From Candidatus Eiseniibacteriota bacterium (GTDB taxonomy: Bacteria > Eisenbacteria > RBG-16-71-46 > CAVPCR01), in contig CAWGMA010000001.1 of assembly GCA_963823555.1 (NCBI GenBank), positions 1,440,001 to 1,504,000 on the forward strand: a stretch of 64,000 nucleotides of DNA, given 5' to 3'. Under the pieces are notes generated by a model that had not been told where the DNA came from, did not search any database, and was given only the letters and a program-made list of their open reading frames with translations. The translations under genes and the position numbers were made by a program. This document shows, in pieces, positions 21,643-36,262 of the stretch (position 1 is its first letter; the number at the start of each line of letters is the position of its first letter).

Positions 21643-23748
21643 ATGGTTGCATCCAAGATCCGACACCTTGCTCTGACCTTCGCCCTCGTCTCGGCGGCTG
21701 CCCTGGCCCCGTGCCCCATGGCCGGCGGCGATCCGGCGCTTGGGCACCAGCCGGTACGCCTCGTCGCCGTCGACCTCCGAGAGCCAGGAGATCTTCTCAC
21801 GATCACCGAGCTCGGAGCGGACATCCTGGCCCGTGACTCACCGACTCGAGTGCGCGTGGCCGCCACGGATCAGGAGATCGCAGCCCTCCAATCCAGCCAT
21901 TTCTGCCTCTCGATTATCGAGCCCGATGTCGAACTCGCAGCCAGACGCCGGCTCGGGGCCGGACACGAGATCTACCACACATTCGATGAAGTGGTGGCGG
22001 AGCTTCACGAGCTGCACGCCCGTCATCCGGACCTGGTCGGCGCGCCACTCGTGATCGGCTCGAGCTGGGAGGGACGTCCGCTCCTGGCCGTCAAGATCTC
22101 CGATCATCCGGAGCGCGACGAGAACGAACCGCGAGTGCTCTTCGATGCGCTCCACCATGCCCGCGAACCGGCCGGGATGGAGACGATCCTCCATGCCATG
22201 AAGCACATCGCGGAGAACGCCGGGCGAGATCCGGATCTGCGCGCGCTGGTGGAGGAACGGGAACTCTGGTTCGTCCCGGTCGTGAATCCCGACGGCTATG
22301 TCTTCGGTGGCGTGGGCGGGCTGTGGCGCAAGAACCGGCGGGCCAACGCGGATGGCTCCTTCGGTGTGGATCTGAATCGCAACTACGGGCACGCCTGGGG
22401 GGCTGATGACGTGGGGTCGAGCCCGGTGCCGGCAAGTCCAATCTACCGCGGGCCGGCGCCTTTCTCCGAGCCCGAGACGGCGGCCATGCGCGATTTCGTC
22501 CTCGGCCGGCGCTTCGCCGCGGGCATGACGATCCATACCTTCGGCGACTTGAATCTCTTGCCGAATGAATCGGCGATGCGTACGCCGGCTGTCCTCGCGC
22601 GGCATGAGGACGTGGCCCACGATCTCGAAGCGTTGACGGGCTATCCCCACGGTCGGGCCCGGGACGTCCTCTATCGATCCAATGGTCGGACACAGGACTG
22701 GCTGGTTGCCGCCACGGGCATGGTGGTGATCGAGCCGGAGATCGGCAGCCCCAGTGACGGATTCTGGCCTGCGCCCAAGCGCCTTCTCGAGCTGGCTGAG
22801 AGGAATCTGCCGGGGATGCTCCATCTCGCGCGCATTGCTGGTCCCCACCTCGTGACCGATGGCTACACCGTTGACGACGGGGCGTCCCGTGATGCCAACG
22901 GGGCAGCAGATCCCGGGGAAACCATCGTCCTCCGGCTCGCGCTACGCAACATCGGTCTGGCTCCGGCGCGTGATGTCACGGTCATGGTGAGCGCGGAGAC
23001 GCCGCTCATCACGGTCCTTGCCGGTCGGGCGGAGATCGTCGAGATACCGGCCGGTGCCGTGCGCGAGATCCCGGATGCCACGCTCCGGATCCGCGTTGCT
23101 CCCGACGCCCGGCGGGGAGAACCGATTCCGCTCTCGGTCGTGGCCAAGGGCCGGGGAACGGCCTCTCCGGCCATGACTCTGGAGATCACTCCGGGAACGC
23201 CTGATCTCCTCTTCGCCGACGACGCCGAGGGAGGTCTCGATCGCTGGATCGCCGTTCGTGGTTGGGGTGTCGTCACGACATCTGATGGCGGCGGCGCCTT
23301 CAGCGACAGCCCGGATGGTCCCTACCGCGCTCATGCCAATTCGATGCTGACCCTGCGCAGCCCCCTGGATCTGCGCGGGGTTGCACAGCCGCGCCTCGCC
23401 TACATGGAGCGGTTCGCCGCGGAGCCGTGGCAGGACCGCTGCCTGGTGGAGGCATGGACTCCCCGACTGGGCTGGCAGACCTTGATCGCGGTCCCTGGCG
23501 GTGTCGAGTCCCGATTCCGCCAGCGCGAGGTTTCGCTCGGCGGGCTGGCCGGCGAGCCCGAAGTGCGGCTCCGTTTCCGCCTCCTGGCGAACCAGGAGCG
23601 CGAGGCTGACGGCTGGACCATCGATGACATTAGGATCTGGGGCTACCGGACCCTGGATGCCCCGATCTTCGCGGCCAGTGCGGCTGGGTCGTCCTCGCGC
23701 GGGAGCGAGGGGACGGGCAGCGCGGGGGCGGCGAGCACGGTGGAGTGA
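21643..23748 (+). CDS. Secreted M14 zinc carboxypeptidase with C-terminal beta domains
   Basis: HHARE, NPDGY, WRKNRR, GVDLNRNY, FSEPET, IHTF, EPEIG. Confidence 0.92.
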   Translation: MVASKIRHLALTFALVSAAALAPCPMAGGDPALGHQPVRLVAVDLREPGDLLTITELGADILARDSPTRVRVAATDQEIAALQSSHFCLSIIEPDVELAARRRLGAGHEIYHTFDEVVAELHELHARHPDLVGAPLVIGSSWEGRPLLAVKISDHPERDENEPRVLFDALHHAREPAGMETILHAMKHIAENAGRDPDLRALVEERELWFVPVVNPDGYVFGGVGGLWRKNRRANADGSFGVDLNRNYGHAWGADDVGSSPVPASPIYRGPAPFSEPETAAMRDFVLGRRFAAGMTIHTFGDLNLLPNESAMRTPAVLARHEDVAHDLEALTGYPHGRARDVLYRSNGRTQDWLVAATGMVVIEPEIGSPSDGFWPAPKRLLELAERNLPGMLHLARIAGPHLVTDGYTVDDGASRDANGAADPGETIVLRLALRNIGLAPARDVTVMVSAETPLITVLAGRAEIVEIPAGAVREIPDATLRIRVAPDARRGEPIPLSVVAKGRGTASPAMTLEITPGTPDLLFADDAEGGLDRWIAVRGWGVVTTSDGGGAFSDSPDGPYRAHANSMLTLRSPLDLRGVAQPRLAYMERFAAEPWQDRCLVEAWTPRLGWQTLIAVPGGVESRFRQREVSLGGLAGEPEVRLRFRLLANQEREADGWTIDDIRIWGYRTLDAPIFAASAAGSSSRGSEGTGSAGAASTVE

Positions 23749-23793
23749 GAGGCCGGGGCCGCCGCCCACGGGGAGCCCTGTTCCAGCGCAAGC

Positions 23794-23855
23794 AAAAGAC
23801 CCAGAAGCACTTGCGGCGTACCGCCCCCGGCGGACCACCCGGGGACTTCTGGGTC
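23794..23855 (-). terminator. Intrinsic terminator-like stem with branched interior
   Basis: GACCCAGAAG...CTTCTGGGTC followed by TTTT on minus. Confidence 0.65.
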
Positions 23856-23917
23856 CGGTGTCCTGTCTTGAATTTCGCAGACGACCGCCTGCGAAGGTCA
23901 ACCTTCGAGAACAGGCG

Positions 23918-23962
23918 TCAGCGAGCAGGCACCTCGCTGGTCTCCGATTTAGGTAAATTCAT
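23918..23962 (-). CDS. Putative 14-aa peptide MNLPKSETSEVPAR behind an extended Shine-Dalgarno
   Basis: GAAAGGAGGTGGTCCA-AAGA-ATG...TGA. Confidence 0.5.
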   Translation of the reverse strand: MNLPKSETSEVPAR

Positions 23963-24049
23963 TCTTTGGACCACCTCCTTTCCGCGTGCCGTGATTGAGC
24001 CATGGAGCCCGTATCCCGTCAAGCCCAAGATTCAGGCCGCGGCGCGGAT

Positions 24050-24778
24050 CTAGCGGGAGGGCGGCAGCGCGGCAGCTTCGTCCTCCACCTGGAAGCGGTA
24101 GCCCACCTTGTGCACGGTCTGGATGTAGCGGCCCCGGGAGGACTCCCCTTCGAGCTTCTTTCGCAGCTTGGCGATGTGTGTGTCCACGGTGCGGGTGTTG
24201 GGAAGCATGTCCTCATTGTAGCCCCAGACCTGGTCGAGAAGCTCCTCGCGCGAGACGATCTGCCCCTGCCTGCGAACGAAGAGCCTCATGATCTCGAACT
24301 CCTTGTAGGAAAGCGGCACCGCTTGGCCGGCGCGCGTCACGGTCCGGCGTTCGAAGTCGATGTGGACGTCGCCGAACCGGAAACGAGAAGGGACCTGAGT
24401 TTCCGTGCGCCCGCTGGCACGCCGCAGAACGGCCTCGATCCGGGCCAGGAGTTCGCGCACCGAGAACGGCTTCGTCACATAGTCGTCGGCACCGAGTTCA
24501 AGGCCGGCGACCTTGTCCGCTTCCTGGCCCCGCGCGGTCAAGATGACGACCGGGGTGCTGACGCCGTCCTGGCGCAGTCGCTTGAGGATCTCGAGCCCGC
24601 CGAGGCCCGGGAGCATGAGGTCGAGGACGATGAGATCCGGGGCCGTGTTCTTGCCGGCAGCTAGCCCGGCGTATCCGTCCGCCGCGATCTCAACCTCGTG
24701 GCCCTCGTACTCGAGGTTGTAGCGGAGCCCCTCCTGCATGGCCGGCTCGTCCTCGATGATCAGGATACGCGGCATCAT
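24050..24778 (-). CDS. OmpR/PhoB family response regulator
   Basis: IIEDE, VLDLMLP, GADDYVTKPF, RTVDTHIAKLRKK, VGYRF. Confidence 0.96.
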   Translation of the reverse strand: MMPRILIIEDEPAMQEGLRYNLEYEGHEVEIAADGYAGLAAGKNTAPDLIVLDLMLPGLGGLEILKRLRQDGVSTPVVILTARGQEADKVAGLELGADDYVTKPFSVRELLARIEAVLRRASGRTETQVPSRFRFGDVHIDFERRTVTRAGQAVPLSYKEFEIMRLFVRRQGQIVSREELLDQVWGYNEDMLPNTRTVDTHIAKLRKKLEGESSRGRYIQTVHKVGYRFQVEDEAAALPPSR

Positions 24779-26490
24779 CTTCCTCCATGGATCTCGGTCA
24801 CGGGCGGCAGATCGCTGGCCTGCGGGGACGAGGGCGCTGCGAGCGGCAGCTCGATCGCGAAGGTCGAGCCCTCGTCGGGTTTCGATTTCACCTGCACCCG
24901 CCCGCCGTGTGCCTCGGCAATGTGCTTGACCAAGGTGAGCCCCAGCCCCGAGCCCTTGACACCCTGGACCATGCCGCCCTCCACGCGGTAGAAGAGCTCG
25001 AAGATATGCTCCTGCTCGGTCGCCGGTATGCCGATCCCGTGATCGCGAACGGAGAGCACGGCATGACGTCCGTGGCGGCGCAGTGACACGGCGATGTCCG
25101 TGGCTCCGTTCGAGTACTTGACCGCGTTGTCGAGCAGATTGAGCAGGGCGCGGGTGATGGCCTCGGGATCAACACGGGCCGTGAGCGGGCCGGGATCGAC
25201 ATGACGATCGATCACGAAGCCACCGGTATCGAACTGGTAACGATAGGCGTCCAGGGTGTCGGTCACGATCTTCACGAGGTCGGCTTCGGCGAAATTGTAG
25301 GTCTTTCTTCCGGCATCAAGACGGGCGATGTCGAGGACATTGTTGATGAGATGGGTCAGCCGCTGGGCCTCGCGTGAGATCACCTGCAGGAACTCCCGAG
25401 CCCGCGATTCATCACGCACGCGACCCATCTCCAATGTCTCGGCATAGAGACGGATGAGTGCGATTGGCGTCTTGAGTTCGTGCGACACGCTGGAAACAAA
25501 GCGGGAAGAGCGCTCGGCCGCCTCGAGCTCGCGATTGATCCAGCGCAGGAGAAAGACCCCTCCGAGGAGAATGATGCCGAGCATCCCACCGATCAAGGCG
25601 AGGTGAGTCGTCCGGACCGACCGCACCCAGGCCTTGTACTCCCGGTCTTCGAGCTGGATGCCAACCCGCCAGAAGGGAAGGAAGCGACTGAAGGGCTGAG
25701 CAGCAATGAGATCGGCTCCGGGTTGAGACCGCGTAGCGAAAGCGATCTCGCCGGCCTCGTCGACGAGGCACACAGCCACGTGATCCCGGAGATAGCCGGC
25801 GCGGAACACGGATTTGTCCTCGCTGGGGCCTCGAGCTAGCAGCGCGGGCAGGACGGTATGCTTCATGTATCCGAGGTCCCAGATCAGGACCACGGCACCG
25901 AGCAGTTCACCGGCCCAGGAGTGAAGCGTGAAATAGGTGACCTGGAAGGGCTCGCCGCGATCCTCTCCGGCCAGATGATGCAAAGGCGCGGGGCCCAGGC
26001 CATCGCTGACGAGGACCGCGTGCACCTGCGGCAGGGACCGCAGAACGGGGGCGGCGGAGCGCTCCTCCCAGGTGGCCGTCGCCGGGAAGATGATCATGGA
26101 GTCAGGCTGCACGCAGTAGACGAACCGGTAGGCCGGGAGGGTGGAGAGTTCGGCCAGGAGGCCAGGTACGGCCGGGACATCTTCCGGTGGATTGGCGCGG
26201 ATGGCGACCATCAACCGCTGTTCTTCGCTCCACAGCTCGTGCTCGGTGTCATCGAGGGTGAGCACCGCCAGATACTCCCCGTAATCACTCCAGCTGCGCC
26301 TACCCAGGGAGTCGAATTGTCCGAGCAAGGAAAGCGCGAGGGCGCTGAGAACGAAGGCCGGCAGCAGCAGCACCCCGACCATGAGCAAGATGATCGGGCG
26401 CCGCCGTGGTGAGCGCAAGAGAGGGAGGTCCAGCATGGGCGATCCGCTTGGCCTCCTTCCCGACCTGGGCATGGGAGGCACGCTCCCCAT
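24775..26490 (-). CDS. Membrane sensor histidine kinase
   Basis: Two TMs, SHELKTP, NLLDNAVKY, DHGIGI, GSGLGL; start uncertain (26436-26490). Confidence 0.94.
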   Translation of the reverse strand: MGSVPPMPRSGRRPSGSPMLDLPLLRSPRRRPIILLMVGVLLLPAFVLSALALSLLGQFDSLGRRSWSDYGEYLAVLTLDDTEHELWSEEQRLMVAIRANPPEDVPAVPGLLAELSTLPAYRFVYCVQPDSMIIFPATATWEERSAAPVLRSLPQVHAVLVSDGLGPAPLHHLAGEDRGEPFQVTYFTLHSWAGELLGAVVLIWDLGYMKHTVLPALLARGPSEDKSVFRAGYLRDHVAVCLVDEAGEIAFATRSQPGADLIAAQPFSRFLPFWRVGIQLEDREYKAWVRSVRTTHLALIGGMLGIILLGGVFLLRWINRELEAAERSSRFVSSVSHELKTPIALIRLYAETLEMGRVRDESRAREFLQVISREAQRLTHLINNVLDIARLDAGRKTYNFAEADLVKIVTDTLDAYRYQFDTGGFVIDRHVDPGPLTARVDPEAITRALLNLLDNAVKYSNGATDIAVSLRRHGRHAVLSVRDHGIGIPATEQEHIFELFYRVEGGMVQGVKGSGLGLTLVKHIAEAHGGRVQVKSKPDEGSTFAIELPLAAPSSPQASDLPPVTEIHGGR

Positions 26491-26683: not shown

Positions 26684-27193
26684 TCAGGATCCCCGCACAT
26701 CCTTGTCCTTCGTTTCCTTCGAGGCTAGCTCGTGCAGGGCTCGAACGAGACCTGGGTCATCCGAGGTGATGATGGTGAACACGCCGTGTACCGAGTTGGA
26801 GACCTCGAATCGTGCCCCTTTGATCTGTAGCAGGAGATCCTGGCAAGTCGCGCAGGTCCTGACCTGCTCCGAGTTCTTCCAGTACTGCTCCCGTAGCCTC
26901 TGTTTCTCGAAGGTGTACTTCTGGATCTCGACCACCGTCTCTGGATGCTCGCAGCGCAGGTGAATGACCACCCCATTGGGTAGGGCACCCACCTCTCGCG
27001 TCGCTCGGTGGAGTGCCGCCGAGTACTGCGCATAGGCGGCGCAGAACACGCATCCCGCTCTGTCGGGAGCCGCCTGCTCGCTGCCGCCTCTTCCCTGCTG
27101 AGCGCCTGCTCTTGTGAAGGCCGGAGCCGCCACGAGGGCTGCGATGGTCAGAGAAGCTGCAAGCGTCCGTAACGGAGCCGTCGATCCTTTCAT
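26684..27193 (-). CDS. Exported hypothetical protein with two CxxC motifs
   Basis: Signal peptide MKGSTAPL...AGA; CVFC, CATC and CEH. Confidence 0.7.
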   Translation of the reverse strand: MKGSTAPLRTLAASLTIAALVAAPAFTRAGAQQGRGGSEQAAPDRAGCVFCAAYAQYSAALHRATREVGALPNGVVIHLRCEHPETVVEIQKYTFEKQRLREQYWKNSEQVRTCATCQDLLLQIKGARFEVSNSVHGVFTIITSDDPGLVRALHELASKETKDKDVRGS

Positions 27194-27298
27194 CTGTCGC
27201 ACCTGGCTGGTCTGACCTCGCTGGAACCTGGCCACCGGGGTGGTTCCCAGCCGCCTTTCGATCGACAACCTAATCTACCCCCCAAGGCACAGCCGTGT

Positions 27299-27747: not shown

Positions 27748-27942
27748 ATGCGAGTCAAGGTGGTCGATCAGAGGTCCTTCGAGAAGGCGCTCCGTCGGTT
27801 CAAGCGCGAGTGCATTCGCGAGGGCATCATCGCCGACATGCGCAAGAACGAGTTCTACGACAAGCCGAGCGTGAGGCGCCGCCGCAAGGAGAACCGTGCT
27901 CGTCGGCGCCGCCTCCGCCTGACCGAGGGCCAGGGCGATTGA
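27748..27942 (+). CDS. rpsU: 30S ribosomal protein bS21
   Basis: FEKALRRFKR...EFYDKPSVRRRRK. Confidence 0.95.
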   Translation: MRVKVVDQRSFEKALRRFKRECIREGIIADMRKNEFYDKPSVRRRRKENRARRRRLRLTEGQGD

Positions 27943-30795: not shown

Positions 30796-31898
30796 ATGCC
30801 ACGCGGGATTCTCCTCGGCCTCGCTCTGTTCGCCATCCTCCCGCTCACGACTCAGGCCGCAACCTACCGCGTGCCCGGCGACGTGCCGAGCATTCAGGCC
30901 GCCATCGACCTCTGCCAGTTCGGGGACTCCGTTGTCGTTGCTCCTGGCACGTATCTCGAGAACCTGGTCATGAAGAGCGGGATTGTCGTGCGGGGCGAAG
31001 CCGCTCCTGAAGCGGTAACCATCGACGGTCGCCTGCTGGGTCCGGTCGTTCTCTGCGATCGAGGTAGCAATTCAGCATGGAAGCACTGACCCTGACCCGG
31101 GGTTACATGAGCGCCTACCCCGGTGGCGCCGGCATCTCCATGAATCGGTCGCAGGGCACCATCACGCGCTGCATCCTGGTCGGCAACCAGGCGGGGCGGG
31201 ACGGGGGCGGAATCTCGATCGTCGATTCCTGGGCCACGCTTCGCGATTGCGCCTTCCGGAACAACAGCGCCGGTGCCTTCGACGGCGGCGGCATCTTCTG
31301 CTACCGCTCCGTTCTCGACGCCGAGGATTGCACGCTCGTCGACAATCTGGCTCAGGAGGGCGGCGGGATTGCGGTCGTCAACGTCTCGACGGCGACCATC
31401 CGGCGGTGCGTGTTGGTGCGGAACCAGGCTCTCGGACCCGGCCCCTCGGGTGGCGCGATCATCGTGGCCAGCTCCTCGGCGCAGATCGAGAACAACACCA
31501 TGGTCGGCAATCAGGTCCCTCCGGGGGGCGCGTCCGTCGCTCTCTACTCGGGATCCTCGCGTTCGAGCCGCAACATCATTGCCTTCAACACTCAAGGCGG
31601 AGGTGTTATGCGCGGCGACCTGGAGTCGGCGTTCTTCATGGCCTGCAACGACCTCTGGGGCAACGCCCCGCAGAACTACGTGGGGTGGCCGGACCAGACC
31701 AACGCCAACGGGAATATCGCCGCCGATCCGCTGTTCTGCGACCTCGTCAACCACGACTACCGCATCGCCGATGCCTCGCCGTGCGCCGCCAATCACAGTC
31801 CGGCGGGCTGCGAGCTGATCGGCGCGCTGGATGTCGGCTGCGGCCCGGTGACGCTCGAGCCAGCGACCTGGGGGCGGATCAAGAGCCGCTTCCGGTAG
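30796..31898 (+). CDS. Secreted right-handed beta-helix protein with TWGxIK tail; apparent frameshift near 31071
   Basis: Signal peptide, VPGDVPSIQAAID, repeated GN.A..GGG, ADPLFCD, ATWGRIKSRFR; two ORFs join with one extra T. Confidence 0.8.
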
Positions 31899-34800
31899 GG
31901 GCCAACTTCGGGCTCTCCCTCCCCCGAGATGCGAGCGATTCGAGTCGGTCCACCTCGAGGCTCGCGGCTCCGTGCTGCTCGCTCACCACACCCTCGACGC
32001 GCAGAGGGCCGCCGCCGGCCATGGCATGGGCCGCGCGGCGGTGGACCGCGGGGAAGAGCGTGCATTCGGCCGTTCCGGTCGGGTCGTCGAGGGTCAGGAA
32101 CGACATGGTCTCTCCATGGCGTGTCGAGGTGCGCCGGCGTGCGGCGACGAGCCCGATCACGGCCGCCCGCTGTCCGATATGGGTGCCGATCTGCCCGGCG
32201 CCCATCCATCGTGGTCCCCGTGGTGCGCCAGGGAGGCGAGCCACGGCAATCCCCAGCGTTCGTGCAGCCGCTGGATCGAGCGCCGAAGCCAGCTCCGGCG
32301 CCTCCGCGAACAGAGGATGGGCGCGCGGCGAGAAGCCGAGTCCGGCCCACTCGGCGCGGAGGCATCGCCCGAGCGACAGCTCGCGCAGCGGCGGTGGCGG
32401 CGCCTCGCCGGCGGATCCGGAGAAGAGCCCCGGTTCCACCGGATCGGTGGCGCGAATCGTGAGTGCTCGTGCTTCCCAGAGTAGCCGACTGCGCTCACAA
32501 CCGAGATGGTCGAAGGCGCCGACTTGGATCAACGCCTCGATCTCGGGCGCGCTCGCGCGCACGCGCCGGCGGAAATCGGAGAGGGAGGAGAAAGGGCCGT
32601 CGGCACTCCGCGCAGCAAGGATCGCCTCGAGCGTGGCCGTGCTCATGCCGGCGACGGCGCCGAGACCCGTGCGCACGGCCGGCGCCTCACCCTCCTCCCC
32701 GACCTCGAGCGTGAACTCGGCGGCCGAGCGGTCCACCGACGGGAGCAGCACGCCCACACCGTGGCGGCGTGCGTCCTCGACGTGCACCCAGCGCGCGTAC
32801 ATGCCCTGGTGATGGTTGAGCACGGCGCAAGCGAAGGGGGCGGGATGGTGCGCCTTCAAGAAGGCGCTCTGATAGGCCAGAAGACCGTACCCGGCGGCGT
32901 GCGCCCGGGAGAAGCTATAGGCGGCGAACCGTGCCATCTCCTCCCAGACGGCGAGCGCCCGATCCGGCTCGACGCCCGCGCGGACCGCGCGAGCGACGAA
33001 GCCGTTCTTGACGAACTGCATCTCCTCGGTGCTCGCGGCCCCGGCGATGGCCCGGCGCAGCGAGTCGCCGGCCTCGAGATCGATCTCGGCGACCGCGGCG
33101 GCGATGCTCATCACGTCCTCCTCGTAGAGGGGGATCCCGTACGTTGCGGCGAGTACCGAGGCCAGCGCCGGATGCGCGGTCGCCACCGGTTCGAGACCCC
33201 GGGCGCGGCGGACGAAACGCTCCTTCATGCCCGAGGAGGCCGGACCGGGACGGATGAGGGACAGCGCATCCACCACCTCGCGCACCGAGCGAGGGGCGAG
33301 CATCACGAGCAAATGGCGCATCCCCGGCGACTCGATCTGAAAGCACCCGAGCGAGTCGCCCGCGGCCAGGAGCTCTGCGGTCGATTGATCGCGGTCGTGC
33401 GCGCGGTCGAGATCGATGGCGGCGCCCTCGGTCGAGCCCACGAGAGCCACCGCCTCGCCGAGCGTGGCCAGAGCCCGATTGCCGAGGAGGTCGATCTTCA
33501 CGAGGCCAATCGCCGCCACCGCCTCCATCTCGTACTGGGTCACGACGATGCCCTTGGTCGCGGACTCGAGCGGCACCAGATCGGCGAGTGGTCGGTCACC
33601 GATCACGATGCCGCCGGGGTGGATTCCCAGGTGGCGGGGCAACCCGTTGAGCCCTGCGGCGCCATCGAGGATCGAACGCCACGGTTCCTCGGTCCATGGC
33701 AGATCACGGAGACCGGGGAGCGATCGCGCCAGAGACGGGAGGTCCGACCCATCGTGGGGCAGGAAGCGGGCGAGGCCGTTCACGACATCAACCGGCACGC
33801 CGTGGGCGCGGGCCGCCTCGCGAAAGGCCGATCGCGGGTGGAAGAAGGTGTGGGTCGAGATCATGGCCACCCGCCCCTCACCATGGGTGCGATAGACGTG
33901 TTCGATCACCCGGTCGCGCCCGCGCCAGTCGAGGTCGATATCGAGATCGGGAAGATCGGCGCCCCGCGCGGCGGAGAGGAATCGTTCGAAGTGGAGGCGA
34001 TGCGCCAGCGGATCGACGTTGGTGATGCCGAGCACGTAGGCGACGATCGAGCTCGCTCCGGAACCGCGGCCGACCACGGCGAGACCCTCGCTGCGTGCGA
34101 AGTCGACGATGTCGCCGACGATGAGGAAGTACTCCGTGTAGCCGAGGCGAGCGATGACGTCGAGCTCCCGCATCAGCCGGTTGACGGGACGCGGGACCAG
34201 GGCGCCATACCGCTTGCGGATCCCGTCGAGACAACGCTCGAGGAGTGCCGTGTACGCGGTCTCCCCTCCCGCCAGCGCCGGCCGGGGAAAGATCGGCGTG
34301 CCCGGGGGTAGCTCGGCGCGGCAGTCGGCGGCGATCTCGCGGCCCCGCGCCAGGAGATCACTGGCCTCGGCCCCATAGCGGCGAGCGATCGCGTGCGGCG
34401 GTTCGGGCCTGCATCCCGGAGCGGGGAGCTCGGCGTCCGTCACCGCGGCGACCACGGCGCCTCGCCGCGCGGCGGCCAGGAGACGCGCGATCTCCACTTC
34501 GTGCGCCGAGGCATACGTCACCGCTGGAGCGGCCACGGCGGCGAGGCCAAGCCGCCGGGCCAGGGAACGGCCACGAGCCATGGCGGCGCGCTCGCCACCC
34601 CCGCCGAGCTCCACGAGAACGGCCAGCCGGTCCGGAGGCAGGCCGCCGCGTAGTGCCGCGAGCAGATCAGGATCCGCGGCCAGGATCCACACGTCCTCGT
34701 GCTCGCCGGCCAGCGCGGGCGCGAGCTTGAACGTCGGATCGAGGTGGCGCCGGGTGATGAGCCGGGTGAGTGTGCGATAGCCTGTCGCCGCGCGGGCGAG

Positions 34801-35064
34801 CACGATCGCCACACGATTCTCGCTGCCTGCCGCGCCCGCGCTCTCCGCTGGTTCGTCGAGCTCGACACCCAGGATCGGGGTCAGGCCGGCAGCGCGCGCC
34901 AGGCCGGCAAAGCGCACCGCAGCGTAGAGATTGTTGCGGTCGGTGAGCGCCATTGTGTCATGGCCGGCGGTGCGCACGGCGGCGATGAGCCGCTCGAGCG
35001 GCGCGGTCCCGCGCAGCAGCGAGTAGCTACTTCGTGAGCGAAGGGGTGCGCAGAACGAAGCCAT
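31879..35064 (-). CDS. dnaE2: DNA polymerase III alpha, error-prone DnaE2-like
   Basis: PHP N-terminus (SYSLL, ALTDRNN), GRGSGASS, PDLDID, HPGG, KIDLLG, FQIESPG, YSFSRAHA, OB fold; start MASF at 35064 inferred. Confidence 0.9.
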   Translation of the reverse strand: MASFCAPLRSRSSYSLLRGTAPLERLIAAVRTAGHDTMALTDRNNLYAAVRFAGLARAAGLTPILGVELDEPAESAGAAGSENRVAIVLARAATGYRTLTRLITRRHLDPTFKLAPALAGEHEDVWILAADPDLLAALRGGLPPDRLAVLVELGGGGERAAMARGRSLARRLGLAAVAAPAVTYASAHEVEIARLLAAARRGAVVAAVTDAELPAPGCRPEPPHAIARRYGAEASDLLARGREIAADCRAELPPGTPIFPRPALAGGETAYTALLERCLDGIRKRYGALVPRPVNRLMRELDVIARLGYTEYFLIVGDIVDFARSEGLAVVGRGSGASSIVAYVLGITNVDPLAHRLHFERFLSAARGADLPDLDIDLDWRGRDRVIEHVYRTHGEGRVAMISTHTFFHPRSAFREAARAHGVPVDVVNGLARFLPHDGSDLPSLARSLPGLRDLPWTEEPWRSILDGAAGLNGLPRHLGIHPGGIVIGDRPLADLVPLESATKGIVVTQYEMEAVAAIGLVKIDLLGNRALATLGEAVALVGSTEGAAIDLDRAHDRDQSTAELLAAGDSLGCFQIESPGMRHLLVMLAPRSVREVVDALSLIRPGPASSGMKERFVRRARGLEPVATAHPALASVLAATYGIPLYEEDVMSIAAAVAEIDLEAGDSLRRAIAGAASTEEMQFVKNGFVARAVRAGVEPDRALAVWEEMARFAAYSFSRAHAAGYGLLAYQSAFLKAHHPAPFACAVLNHHQGMYARWVHVEDARRHGVGVLLPSVDRSAAEFTLEVGEEGEAPAVRTGLGAVAGMSTATLEAILAARSADGPFSSLSDFRRRVRASAPEIEALIQVGAFDHLGCERSRLLWEARALTIRATDPVEPGLFSGSAGEAPPPPLRELSLGRCLRAEWAGLGFSPRAHPLFAEAPELASALDPAAARTLGIAVARLPGAPRGPRWMGAGQIGTHIGQRAAVIGLVAARRRTSTRHGETMSFLTLDDPTGTAECTLFPAVHRRAAHAMAGGGPLRVEGVVSEQHGAASLEVDRLESLASRGRESPKLAPTGSGS

Positions 35065-36262
35065 AGCGATCGCGGGCATGTCCATCGAGAAGGGCCAGGG
35101 CACGGCCGGCGATGAGCGCGCCGTGCCCGAAGCGGTCGCGGACACGGTCGACGCTTCCGGTGAGATCCAGATCGCGACCGCCCAGCGCCGGGTCGAGGAG
35201 ATCGAGCTGCTCGCCGGCGGCGACGGTGAATCCCGAGAGCTCGATGCCGACCCGCCGGAGGGCGATTCGGCGCTGACTGAGACGCGCGAGCAGGTGCCGC
35301 GCCGAGTCGAGGAGGACGCGGTCCAGGGCGCTCGGCGCGGCGAGCGTGTGGTGCGCCTCCTGGCGGCGTTCGCCGTCCGGTTCGGTGCGCACGGCGAGCG
35401 CGCGCGCGACGAGTCCGAGTCGGCGCGTGGCCCGGGCCGCCCGCTCGACCAGGTAGCCGAGCATGGAGTCGACGAGCGCGGGATCGGCGGCAGGCGGATC
35501 GAAGCTGGTTTCGCGCGCGATCGAGCGCGGAACCTCGCGCGCCGTTACGGGGCGCGTGTCATGGCCCAGGGCTCGCTCATGGAGGACACGGCCGGAGGCT
35601 CCGAGCAGGCGCGCGAGCGCGTCGGCGCCCATGGCGGCGACGTCGGCGACGGTCTCGAGCCCCAGCGATTCGAGCACTCCGGCCGTGTGCGGGCCGATCC
35701 CGGGAAGGTCGCCGAGAGGGCGGCCGCGGAGATAGGCGATCTCCTCTCCAGGCGGCACCTGGGAGAGGCCATCGGGCTTGGCGCTCCGGCTCGCAAGGCG
35801 CGCGATCATGCGGTTCGAGCCGATCCCGATGGTGACGGTGAGACCGGTCCTGGCGCGGACACGCTCGCGCAGCGTCGCACCGAATGCGGCGAGATCCGGG
35901 TAGAGGCGTTCGGTGCCGGTCAGGTCGAGGTAGGCGTCGTCGAGGTAGCTGTCGACCGCCGGGGCGAGATCGCGGCAAATGGCGAAGACGCGGGCGGCGA
36001 ATGCCTGATAGGTCGGCGCGTGGCCGGCGAGGATGACCGCCCGCGGGCAGCGGCGGCGGGCCTCGCGGAGCGGCATGCCGGCGCCGAGGCCGAGGCGGCG
36101 CGCTTCGTAGGAACAGCTGGCGATGACTCCGGTGCCGACGATCACCGGCCGGCCGCGCAGGCGCGGGTTCTTGAGCTGCTCCACCGCGGCGAAGAAGGCG
36201 TCGATGTCGAGATGAACGATGCGGCGGACGCTCGCAGTGGGCTGGGAACGGTGGATGCTCAT
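35027..36262 (-). CDS. dinB: Y-family DNA polymerase IV
   Basis: HLDIDAFFAAVE, SYEAR, LDDAYLD, KPDG, LPGIG, SIARET, clamp motif QLDLL. Confidence 0.9.
   Translation of the reverse strand: MSIHRSQPTASVRRIVHLDIDAFFAAVEQLKNPRLRGRPVIVGTGVIASCSYEARRLGLGAGMPLREARRRCPRAVILAGHAPTYQAFAARVFAICRDLAPAVDSYLDDAYLDLTGTERLYPDLAAFGATLRERVRARTGLTVTIGIGSNRMIARLASRSAKPDGLSQVPPGEEIAYLRGRPLGDLPGIGPHTAGVLESLGLETVADVAAMGADALARLLGASGRVLHERALGHDTRPVTAREVPRSIARETSFDPPAADPALVDSMLGYLVERAARATRRLGLVARALAVRTEPDGERRQEAHHTLAAPSALDRVLLDSARHLLARLSQRRIALRRVGIELSGFTVAAGEQLDLLDPALGGRDLDLTGSVDRVRDRFGHGALIAGRALALLDGHARDRYGFVLRTPSLTK

Follow-up and report, generated by a model that had tools for sequence, protein, structure and literature searches.

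What is encoded in a short gap between two convergent genes, where an extended Shine-Dalgarno (SD) sequence precedes an open reading frame of only 14 codons, is the question raised by this locus. The gap (23749-24049, 301 bp) is part of the window, that is, the whole stretch of 64,000 nucleotides that was analysed, and the element inside it lies on the minus strand (Table 1). Its left neighbour is an M14 peptidase (carboxypeptidase) gene on the plus strand, ending at 23748, and its right neighbour, an OmpR-type regulator gene on the minus strand ending at 24050, is located downstream of a histidine kinase gene. An earlier note, made from the letters alone, had described a gap of about 300 bp, a TTGACG hexamer, a match to 15 of 16 positions of the 16S complement and the short ORF, all of which are present, while SD2, a second SD at 23935-23930, is missing from it. 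The same note recognised no named family and considered the locus a novelty, a claim that falls on one of the note's own refuting conditions, because positions 23790-23989 of the minus strand match the Rfam family Ms_IGR-5 (RF02471) with 46.9 bits, above the gathering cut-off of 45 (E 2.1e-07, model positions 1-184). The locus is thus a further member of a catalogued family and not a new family, and it is the sole match to RF02471 in this genome.

Table 1. Parts of the element and its surroundings, in window coordinates
Feature	Position	Strand	Basis or remark
-35 hexamer TTGACG	24017..24022	-	sequence
-10 position CTCAAT, non-canonical, 17 nt past -35	23994..23999	-	CCCAAT in L003 and L005; missed by consensus promoter scan
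Predicted transcript of ~195 nt, Ms_IGR-5 family	23793..23987	-	probable start A23987; Rfam match
5' strand of helix P0 (CGC), partner GCG 23937-23935	23984..23986	-	family covariation
Extended SD1, complement of the 16S 3' tail over 16-17 nt	23967..23983	-	own 16S gene
Micro-ORF MNLPKSETSEVPAR, 14 codons and TGA	23918..23962	-	ATG 23962, TGA 23920-23918
GACCA box	23938..23942	-	partner SD1 UGGUC 23973-23969 (P1) or 3' loop UGGUC 23837-23833 (pseudoknot)
Second SD (SD2), GAGGUG, ending 9 nt short of the stop codon	23930..23935	-	family conservation
5' strand of helix P2 (GGUGCCUG), predicted to bury SD2	23926..23933	-	fold and covariation
Variable hairpin CGCCUG/CAGGCG, inner CGAAGG/CCUUCG	23886..23917	-	length and sequence differ widely across the family
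Conserved GCGAAAUUC element, internal loop between variable hairpin and P2	23870..23878	-	alignment columns
3' strand of P2 (CAGGACACC), anti-SD able to pair with SD2 or SD1	23857..23865	-	folds
Branched 3' domain, GGUCC loop, short U tract; likely terminator	23793..23856	-	folds; missed by simple terminator scan

Of the 16 bases of SD1 (GAAAGGAGGTGGTCCA, 23982-23967), 15 form Watson-Crick pairs with the 16S tail encoded in the same genome and one forms a G-U wobble, and with a further wobble at G23983 the match reaches up to 17 pairs; the duplex is predicted at -26.3 kcal/mol (15 pairs tested). In the 4.6 Mb genome AAGGAGGTGRTCC is found three times, in the 16S gene, at the SD1 site and at one other place, and the SD1 match is more than chance. 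A consensus scan of the minus strand called neither a promoter nor a terminator here, and the branched terminator of the earlier note stands as a predicted branched 3' domain with a short U tract, although the simple terminator scan leaves it uncalled. Across the family, TTG is present at -47..-37 in 169 of 237 members versus 21 in a control window, TAnnnT is present at -25..-10 in 170 of 237 elements versus 3, and an A peak at -8/-7 before AAGGAGG places the probable start at A23987. Since the -10 position of the window is atypical, read-through from the upstream operon may contribute at this locus. Flanking genes and their orientation differ between clades, with the layout of the window common only to genomes of the same genus and the same family. 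Because the downstream gene is convergent here and the neighbours differ between clades, the evidence supports the stand-alone transcript that the earlier note had proposed and not an attenuator, and the conserved promoter motifs agree with this. The histidine kinase and OmpR/PhoB-like regulator pair (24050-26490, minus strand) stops 28 nt short of the -35 hexamer, and the same layout is found in the relatives from the same family (L003) and the same genus (L005).

The Rfam entry is described as 'Actinobacteria sRNA', a label that refers to actinobacterial hosts and is not a sequence criterion; the window host, likely a member of Ca. Eisenbacteria and carrying rpsU, is outside Actinomycetota and widens the host range of Ms_IGR-5, with which the window has in common SD1, the box, SD2, the stop, the GAAUCC element, the CACC strand and the 3' domain. 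The original description of IGR-5 is reportedly that of Li et al. 2013. When 41 related genomes were searched with the RF02471 model (E <= 0.1), 18 matched, five of them above the cut-off, and among 14 control genomes the model rang weakly in Caulobacter. A two-SD pattern matched 129 of the 201 genomes of the phylum (including the unpublished G354, and a few matches, L316, L324 and L325, that look spurious), once each save in one genome, against 10 matches for the reversed pattern. Across GTDB it matched at least 120 loci (including the unpublished G042), and among the matches listed 98 are, by record title, from Actinomycetota, 13 from Acidobacteriota and 9 from other groups. Every search pattern demanded SD1 and two also demanded SD2, so these counts sample only members that carry them. 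A model named R1, built from sequence only with 15 elements of the window's class, gave 38-62 bits on the loci tested from Actinomycetota, Acidobacteriota, Sumerlaeota, Binatia and Syntrophobacter, the exception being the Bryobacterales locus L070 with 20; some examples of actinobacterial loci are L120 (55.5 bits), L044 (55.3), L112 (55.2) and L043 (44.9).

Some loci are at the margins of the family. The SAR86 loci L081 and L084 and the Bdellovibrionota locus L116 were rejected as members, having no in-frame ORF under the rule used, and with R1 L081 is unmatched and L116 reaches 17.8 bits. The two SAR86 loci (L081, 1500-1620; L084, 320-440) show SD1, GGAGGTG and a terminator, yet no standard in-frame start, and R1 gives no match. 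In Leptospira (L069) and Gemmataceae (L147) only the 5' half matches (25-26 bits). Metagenome loci such as L167, L170, L172 and L190 form a subfamily ending in EVADC with another 3' part, mostly outside the structural alignment described below. L014 and L020 (G038:C29:18455-18743) are a single element in which a long insertion separates the stop from the CACC strand, and in L306 the middle domain is enlarged.

The ORF was followed in 135 elements, namely 15 relatives and 120 GTDB loci among the matches listed, the stop being left unfixed in the pattern. Among the matches listed, 123 of the 135 carry an ATG, GTG or TTG ORF of 11-19 codons ending just past GAGGTG, most of the remaining 12 being Acidimicrobiia in which CTG takes the place of the start; the stop is matched by an in-frame start codon in 121 elements, against 9 and 19 for the two other frames, again among the matches listed. 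Lengths between SD1 and SD2 vary by multiples of 3 within families, such as 43, 46 and 49 in family f10, and 41, 47, 50, 53 and 56 in 38 of the 39 matches of family f9. SD2 sits 6 nt before the last sense codon, a distance within the 4-12 nt that separate SD1 from its start. In the 123 ORFs among the matches listed, the reading frame of GAGGTG is 0 in 115, 1 in five and 2 in three, and the spacing of the hexamer to the stop is 9 in 114, 8 in five, 10 in two, 7 in one and 12 in one, with frame 0 going with 9, frame 1 with 8, and frame 2 with 10 or 7. By comparison, of the 5024 long frames in the genome just 7 carry GAGGTG 8-10 nt before the stop. As earlier patterns had demanded GAGGTG, a synonymous-tolerant scan was run with the eight Glu-Val codon pairs and a TRR stop at spacing 9, and the exact hexamer was recovered in 118 of 120 loci (115 of 117 distinct), the exceptions being a GAGGTA and a GAAGTA, the latter with no ORF; although the TRR stop would have admitted it, TGG occurred in 0 of 120. 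Because GAGGUG is read in three frames and is exact in 118 of the 120 synonymous-tolerant matches, the hexamer is selected as RNA and not as peptide. The ORF would accordingly be kept for its frame and stop and not for its peptide, which is likely a by-product. The invariance of SD2 could come instead from a tertiary contact or a protein site. A motif search of the supplements of PMC9094748 returned only long proteins among the places displayed.

The region folds better than expected (z = -2.78, a value that none of 200 shuffles reached), and the family was compared in a structural alignment (A2), made from sequence only, of 105 of 126 non-redundant elements, 21 having been removed by hand, mostly for long inserts or a divergent 3' part. 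Later counts also leave out L012, L018, L019, L020, L217, L316, L324 and L325, which look spurious or partial, L074 and L334 from unpublished genomes, duplicates, and loci with less than 150 nt past the stop. Three helices were recovered. P0, which joins the 5' leader to the three bases before SD2, provides the top three covarying column pairs of 11628 (z 13-16; 88-90% canonical), and in the window its register is one base off relative to the family. P1 pairs the 3' end of SD1 with the GGAC box in the ORF, with a covarying G/A position (GC 83, AU 10, GU 7) that may explain the wobble of SD1 to 16S, and P2 pairs SD2 with the CAG.CACC strand. In the family structure 82.2% of cells are paired, with 0 of 500 shuffles as high and slid controls at 37-47%. 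Compensatory events counted on a tree built without the tested columns number 8, 7 and 6 for the P0 pairs, 5 for each of two P2 pairs and 3 for a P1 pair (<=0.0055 of null pairs), and two other P2 pairs are not significant on the tree. Global duplex rank tests are weak, both for P2 (mean rank 0.26, 48 types) and for a pseudoknot between the box and the 3' GUCC loop (0.41, 148 types); the pseudoknot is tentative, as the tree singles out just one of its four tested pairs, 61:349 (0.016 of null pairs, with 4 events), and the three others are not significant. The helix burying SD2 and the two helices flanking SD1 are supported by covariation, and none of them is in the Rfam consensus structure of RF02471, which instead pairs SD1 with the bases following SD2. 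The GCGAAAUUC element is conserved at alignment columns 248 and 261-264 (A97, A81, T87, C63 and C94 of 105), and the GUCC loop is missing from some members (L010, L013 and L015).

Energy models do not simply reproduce this family fold. The lowest-energy fold of the window differs from it (-87.9 kcal/mol free, -83.4 with P2 forced, -80.4 with P0, P1 and P2 forced) and pairs SD1 with the CACC strand, so that the family fold costs 4.5-7.5 kcal/mol more; over the 105 sequences the models give P0 in 4, P2 in 49, an open SD1 purine core in 46 and a paired SD2 in 103. The freed CACC strand could lock out SD1, but as a general feature this was rejected, being predicted in the window (0.73) and in just 22 of 105 members. 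The stems of the earlier note fare unevenly here. Its hairpin CAGCGAG/CTCGCTG is found in the single-sequence fold of the window and is absent from the family structure, and its alternative stem (GCAG.../...CUGC) appears in the window, L003 and L005 when the ribosome footprint is forced open, while mutually exclusive stems as a 3' switch are not family-wide. Of the checks proposed there, homologues do keep the ORF layout and helices P0-P2 do covary, with the note's own hairpins being mostly local. In the 3' tails of L003, L005, L006 and L013 the SD1 purine core is predicted to pair with a pyrimidine tail beyond the 3' domain, which may be chance and would close the 5' and 3' ends of the RNA.

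Some published data on relatives bear on the function of this RNA. In M. abscessus, the supplement of PMC4974804 gives Ms_IGR-5 an RNA-seq value of 70.3 and a Ribo-seq value of 3736.6 RPKM, a ratio of ~53, compared with ratios of at most ~2 in the 13 remaining ncRNA rows and ~4 for protein genes on the same supplement page; the ratio can be inflated, given that RNA-seq can under-count short RNAs. Ms_IGR-5 homologues carry Ribo-seq reads in both M. abscessus and M. smegmatis, and the authors treat them as non-coding and warn that small-RNA Ribo-seq signal can stem from ribonucleoprotein co-sedimentation (PMC4974804). Other papers report the transcript in Streptomyces (PMC8079986, PMC8780764), the expression of M. 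smegmatis IGR-5 as ncMSMEG15794c (PMC10454040) and its presence among NAD-captured RNAs (10.1101/2021.12.14.472595). In a literature search with most subscription journals outside its scope, no paper assigned Ms_IGR-5 an ORF, an extended SD or a second SD, and none linked rreB to CC2171.

A close parallel is provided by rreB and rreR of Alphaproteobacteria, which are, like the window element, stand-alone small transcripts with a complement of 16-17 nt to the 16S tail, an ORF of 14-18 codons (14 in the window) and a structured 3' part. According to PMC5711450, rreB is a weakly translated RNA of 165 nt with 14 codons and a 17-nt SD that co-sediments with 30S subunits; its half-life of 10 min becomes 37 min once the start is changed to a stop, ribosome binding depends on the 5'-most bases of its match, and it is far scarcer than ribosomes, with growth unchanged at 20-fold overproduction. 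The window element shares with the rre class a stretch of 16 nt or more that, wobbles counted, can pair with the 16S 3' end and that precedes a short ORF, and rreB ends in GCC CGC and a stop like the actinobacterial Ms_IGR-5 consensus. The start codon of rreB and rreR abuts the SD, the last complementary base being the first base of GTG or ATG, whereas the ATG of the window is 4 nt beyond that spacing, 11 nt after AGGAGG; the rre spacing is present in 47 of 235 members of the Ms_IGR-5 family. Moreover, rreB has CACCTC inside its ORF and no GAGGTG 9 nt before the stop, that is, no SD2. A pattern of SD plus start matched 22 of 301 genomes (the phylum of a SAR86 record), and one of these loci, L295, corresponds to the rreB oligonucleotides; such rre-type loci mostly lack SD2, with a mean duplex energy near the stop of -6.2 for the 22 versus -13.0. 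CC2171 (RF01867), a Caulobacter sRNA with the extended-SD and short-ORF layout of the rre-type loci, which is expressed, no function being given in the excerpts of 10.1101/2022.01.24.477521, matches all 16 of the 22 loci that were tested, three above the cut-off, while RF02471 gave no match on these 16 at E <= 1 and CC2171 gave none on window positions 23500-24300 at E <= 10. R1 scores 12-25 bits on rre-type loci where matched, and unrelated viral SD matches reach 16 bits. The window RNA would work like rreB at its 5' end, and as rreB is without SD2 and both the homology and an rre membership of the window RNA are putative, the rreB data carry over by analogy only. The rre-type loci of Alphaproteobacteria (L283-L304, at about 1340-1690 in each, including L295) match CC2171, and two of them adjoin other structured RNAs, an FMN riboswitch in L292 (1763-1914) and a permuted tmRNA in L283 (2721-3018).

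A second parallel concerns the stop. Leader-peptide SDs likewise lie shortly before stop codons, where ribosome occupancy is raised, and in vitro kinetics showed that an SD before the stop slows mRNA release 50-fold (PMC5737721). The SD studied there lies ~3 nt closer to its stop than SD2 does, and leader-peptide SDs control a downstream gene, whereas none follows on the strand of the window element.

From the family match, the kept ORF, the RNA-level SD2, the covariation, the Ribo-seq ratio, the rreB data and the kinetics of SDs before stops, a reading is put forward with moderate confidence in which this is a translation-gated RNA that would hold a ribosome at its start and again at its stop and be unfolded by that ribosome, the peptide being a likely by-product. 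The folded RNA is predicted to expose the purine core of SD1 between P0 and P1, with P2 hiding SD2 and the stop. A 30S subunit would then seed on SD1 and zip along the whole 16S tail, making initiation slow, as rreB and the Ribo-seq data suggest. Translation of the ~14 codons would melt P1, P0 and P2, and at the stop SD2 would pair with the 16S tail and, if the in vitro kinetics apply, delay release of the mRNA while the freed 3' part refolds. In the last and least certain step, the unfolded RNA may be degraded, so that the level of intact folded RNA would gauge free active ribosomes, and the conserved loops may act on an unnamed partner. The earlier note's idea of a ribosome-engaging RNA is supported by this reading; its suggestion of ribosome sequestration in bulk is doubtful in view of the rreB overproduction result (PMC5711450). 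It had also pointed to bS21, located beside the anti-SD, which does not seem to be required, as no PF01165 match was found in four of four actinobacterial genomes carrying the RNA, and one match was found in an acidobacterial carrier. In the window, the rpsU (bS21) gene (27748-27942, plus strand) is 3.7 kb from the element and on the opposite strand.

An unlikely alternative is that the RNA stores ribosomes or shields the 16S tail, binding idle 30S or 70S particles through the whole anti-SD tail, keeping them inactive or protecting the 16S 3' end, with the ORF releasing or clearing the complex. It would fit the observation that complementarity goes no further than the predicted 16S terminus (of 237 members, 95% have G at -2 and 90% a purine at -3), the bases past it covarying as P0 instead, as well as the need for the 5'-most bases of the rreB match (PMC5711450) and the high Ribo-seq ratio in M. 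abscessus (PMC4974804, supplement). However, ribosomes are far in excess of rreB and growth is unchanged by 20-fold more of it, the M. abscessus copy reaches just 70 RPKM, and storage alone needs no conserved frame or stop.

That the element is a base-pairing or protein-binding sRNA, with ribosome loading setting only its stability and the function residing in the conserved GAAUCC and GUCC loops, is improbable as well. The conserved loop columns are unpaired, the RNA is annotated as an sRNA and is NAD-captured in M. smegmatis (10.1101/2021.12.14.472595), but the invariant positions are SD1 and SD2 (partly by selection of the pattern) and the loss of the GUCC loop in L010, L013 and L015 does not fit a functional loop. 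This proposal also overlaps the last step of the translation-gated reading.

A product role for the peptide, as a functional micropeptide or an arrest peptide with a C-terminal EVxxR, is doubtful to a higher degree, and with it the micropeptide, stalling peptide or toxin of the earlier note, given that peptide and frame vary and GAGGTG shows no synonymous variation. Frame 0 does give EV(A/P/V)xx in 115 of 123 ORFs among the matches listed, ORF length is conserved, and RreB and RreR each show peptide conservation in their own clade (PMC5711450). Nevertheless, whole families use other frames (GGGCS*, RCLVS*), Glu-Val is encoded without synonymous variation in 118 of 120 loci, the last three residues vary, the N-termini are unrelated, and synthetic RreB is unstructured according to the same paper. 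A cis element, serving the upstream two-component operon as its terminator or attenuator, or a type I toxin mRNA, is very improbable, for although in the window, L003 and L005 the element comes after the regulator gene in the same orientation with no terminator called between, the family has its own promoter motifs, neighbours and orientations differ between clades, the peptide is hydrophilic and none of the 22 viral pattern matches is a true copy, being without the short ORF and the 3' motifs.

Beyond the translation-gated reading of the window element, Ms_IGR-5, CC2171 and rreB/rreR could all belong, as separate branches, to an ancient class of ribosome-sensing RNA that is single-copy and spread across many phyla, a possible but tentative proposal. 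Such RNAs would read the whole mature 16S 3' tail and have a ribosome translate a dummy frame, and the Ms_IGR-5 branch would catch it again at the stop via SD2 and flip a switch between P1 and the pseudoknot; they would then be gauges of ribosome number, tail maturity or recycling, and not sRNA or peptide genes.

A catalogued 'actinobacterial sRNA' to which no function had been assigned is thus recast as a multi-phylum, mostly single-copy RNA arranged around two putative ribosome-docking sites, and the Rfam structure and host range of Ms_IGR-5 are corrected. The family itself was already known; its ORF and its SD2 appear in none of the papers found in the literature search, and the ribosome-holding reading is new. 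It offers a natural case for two questions, namely how an SD duplex along the full tail affects initiation and how an SD before the stop affects ribosome recycling in vivo.

Some other features of the window were recorded. A 194-codon ORF upstream of the kinase gene (26684-27268, minus strand) has no match in Pfam or NCBIfam. A gene of the DNA polymerase III alpha family (31879-35145, minus strand) is under every NCBIfam equivalog cut-off, its score for the error-prone subfamily being 627 bits where the cut-off is 939, and a tRNA-Leu (CAA) is encoded at 62-147 on the minus strand.
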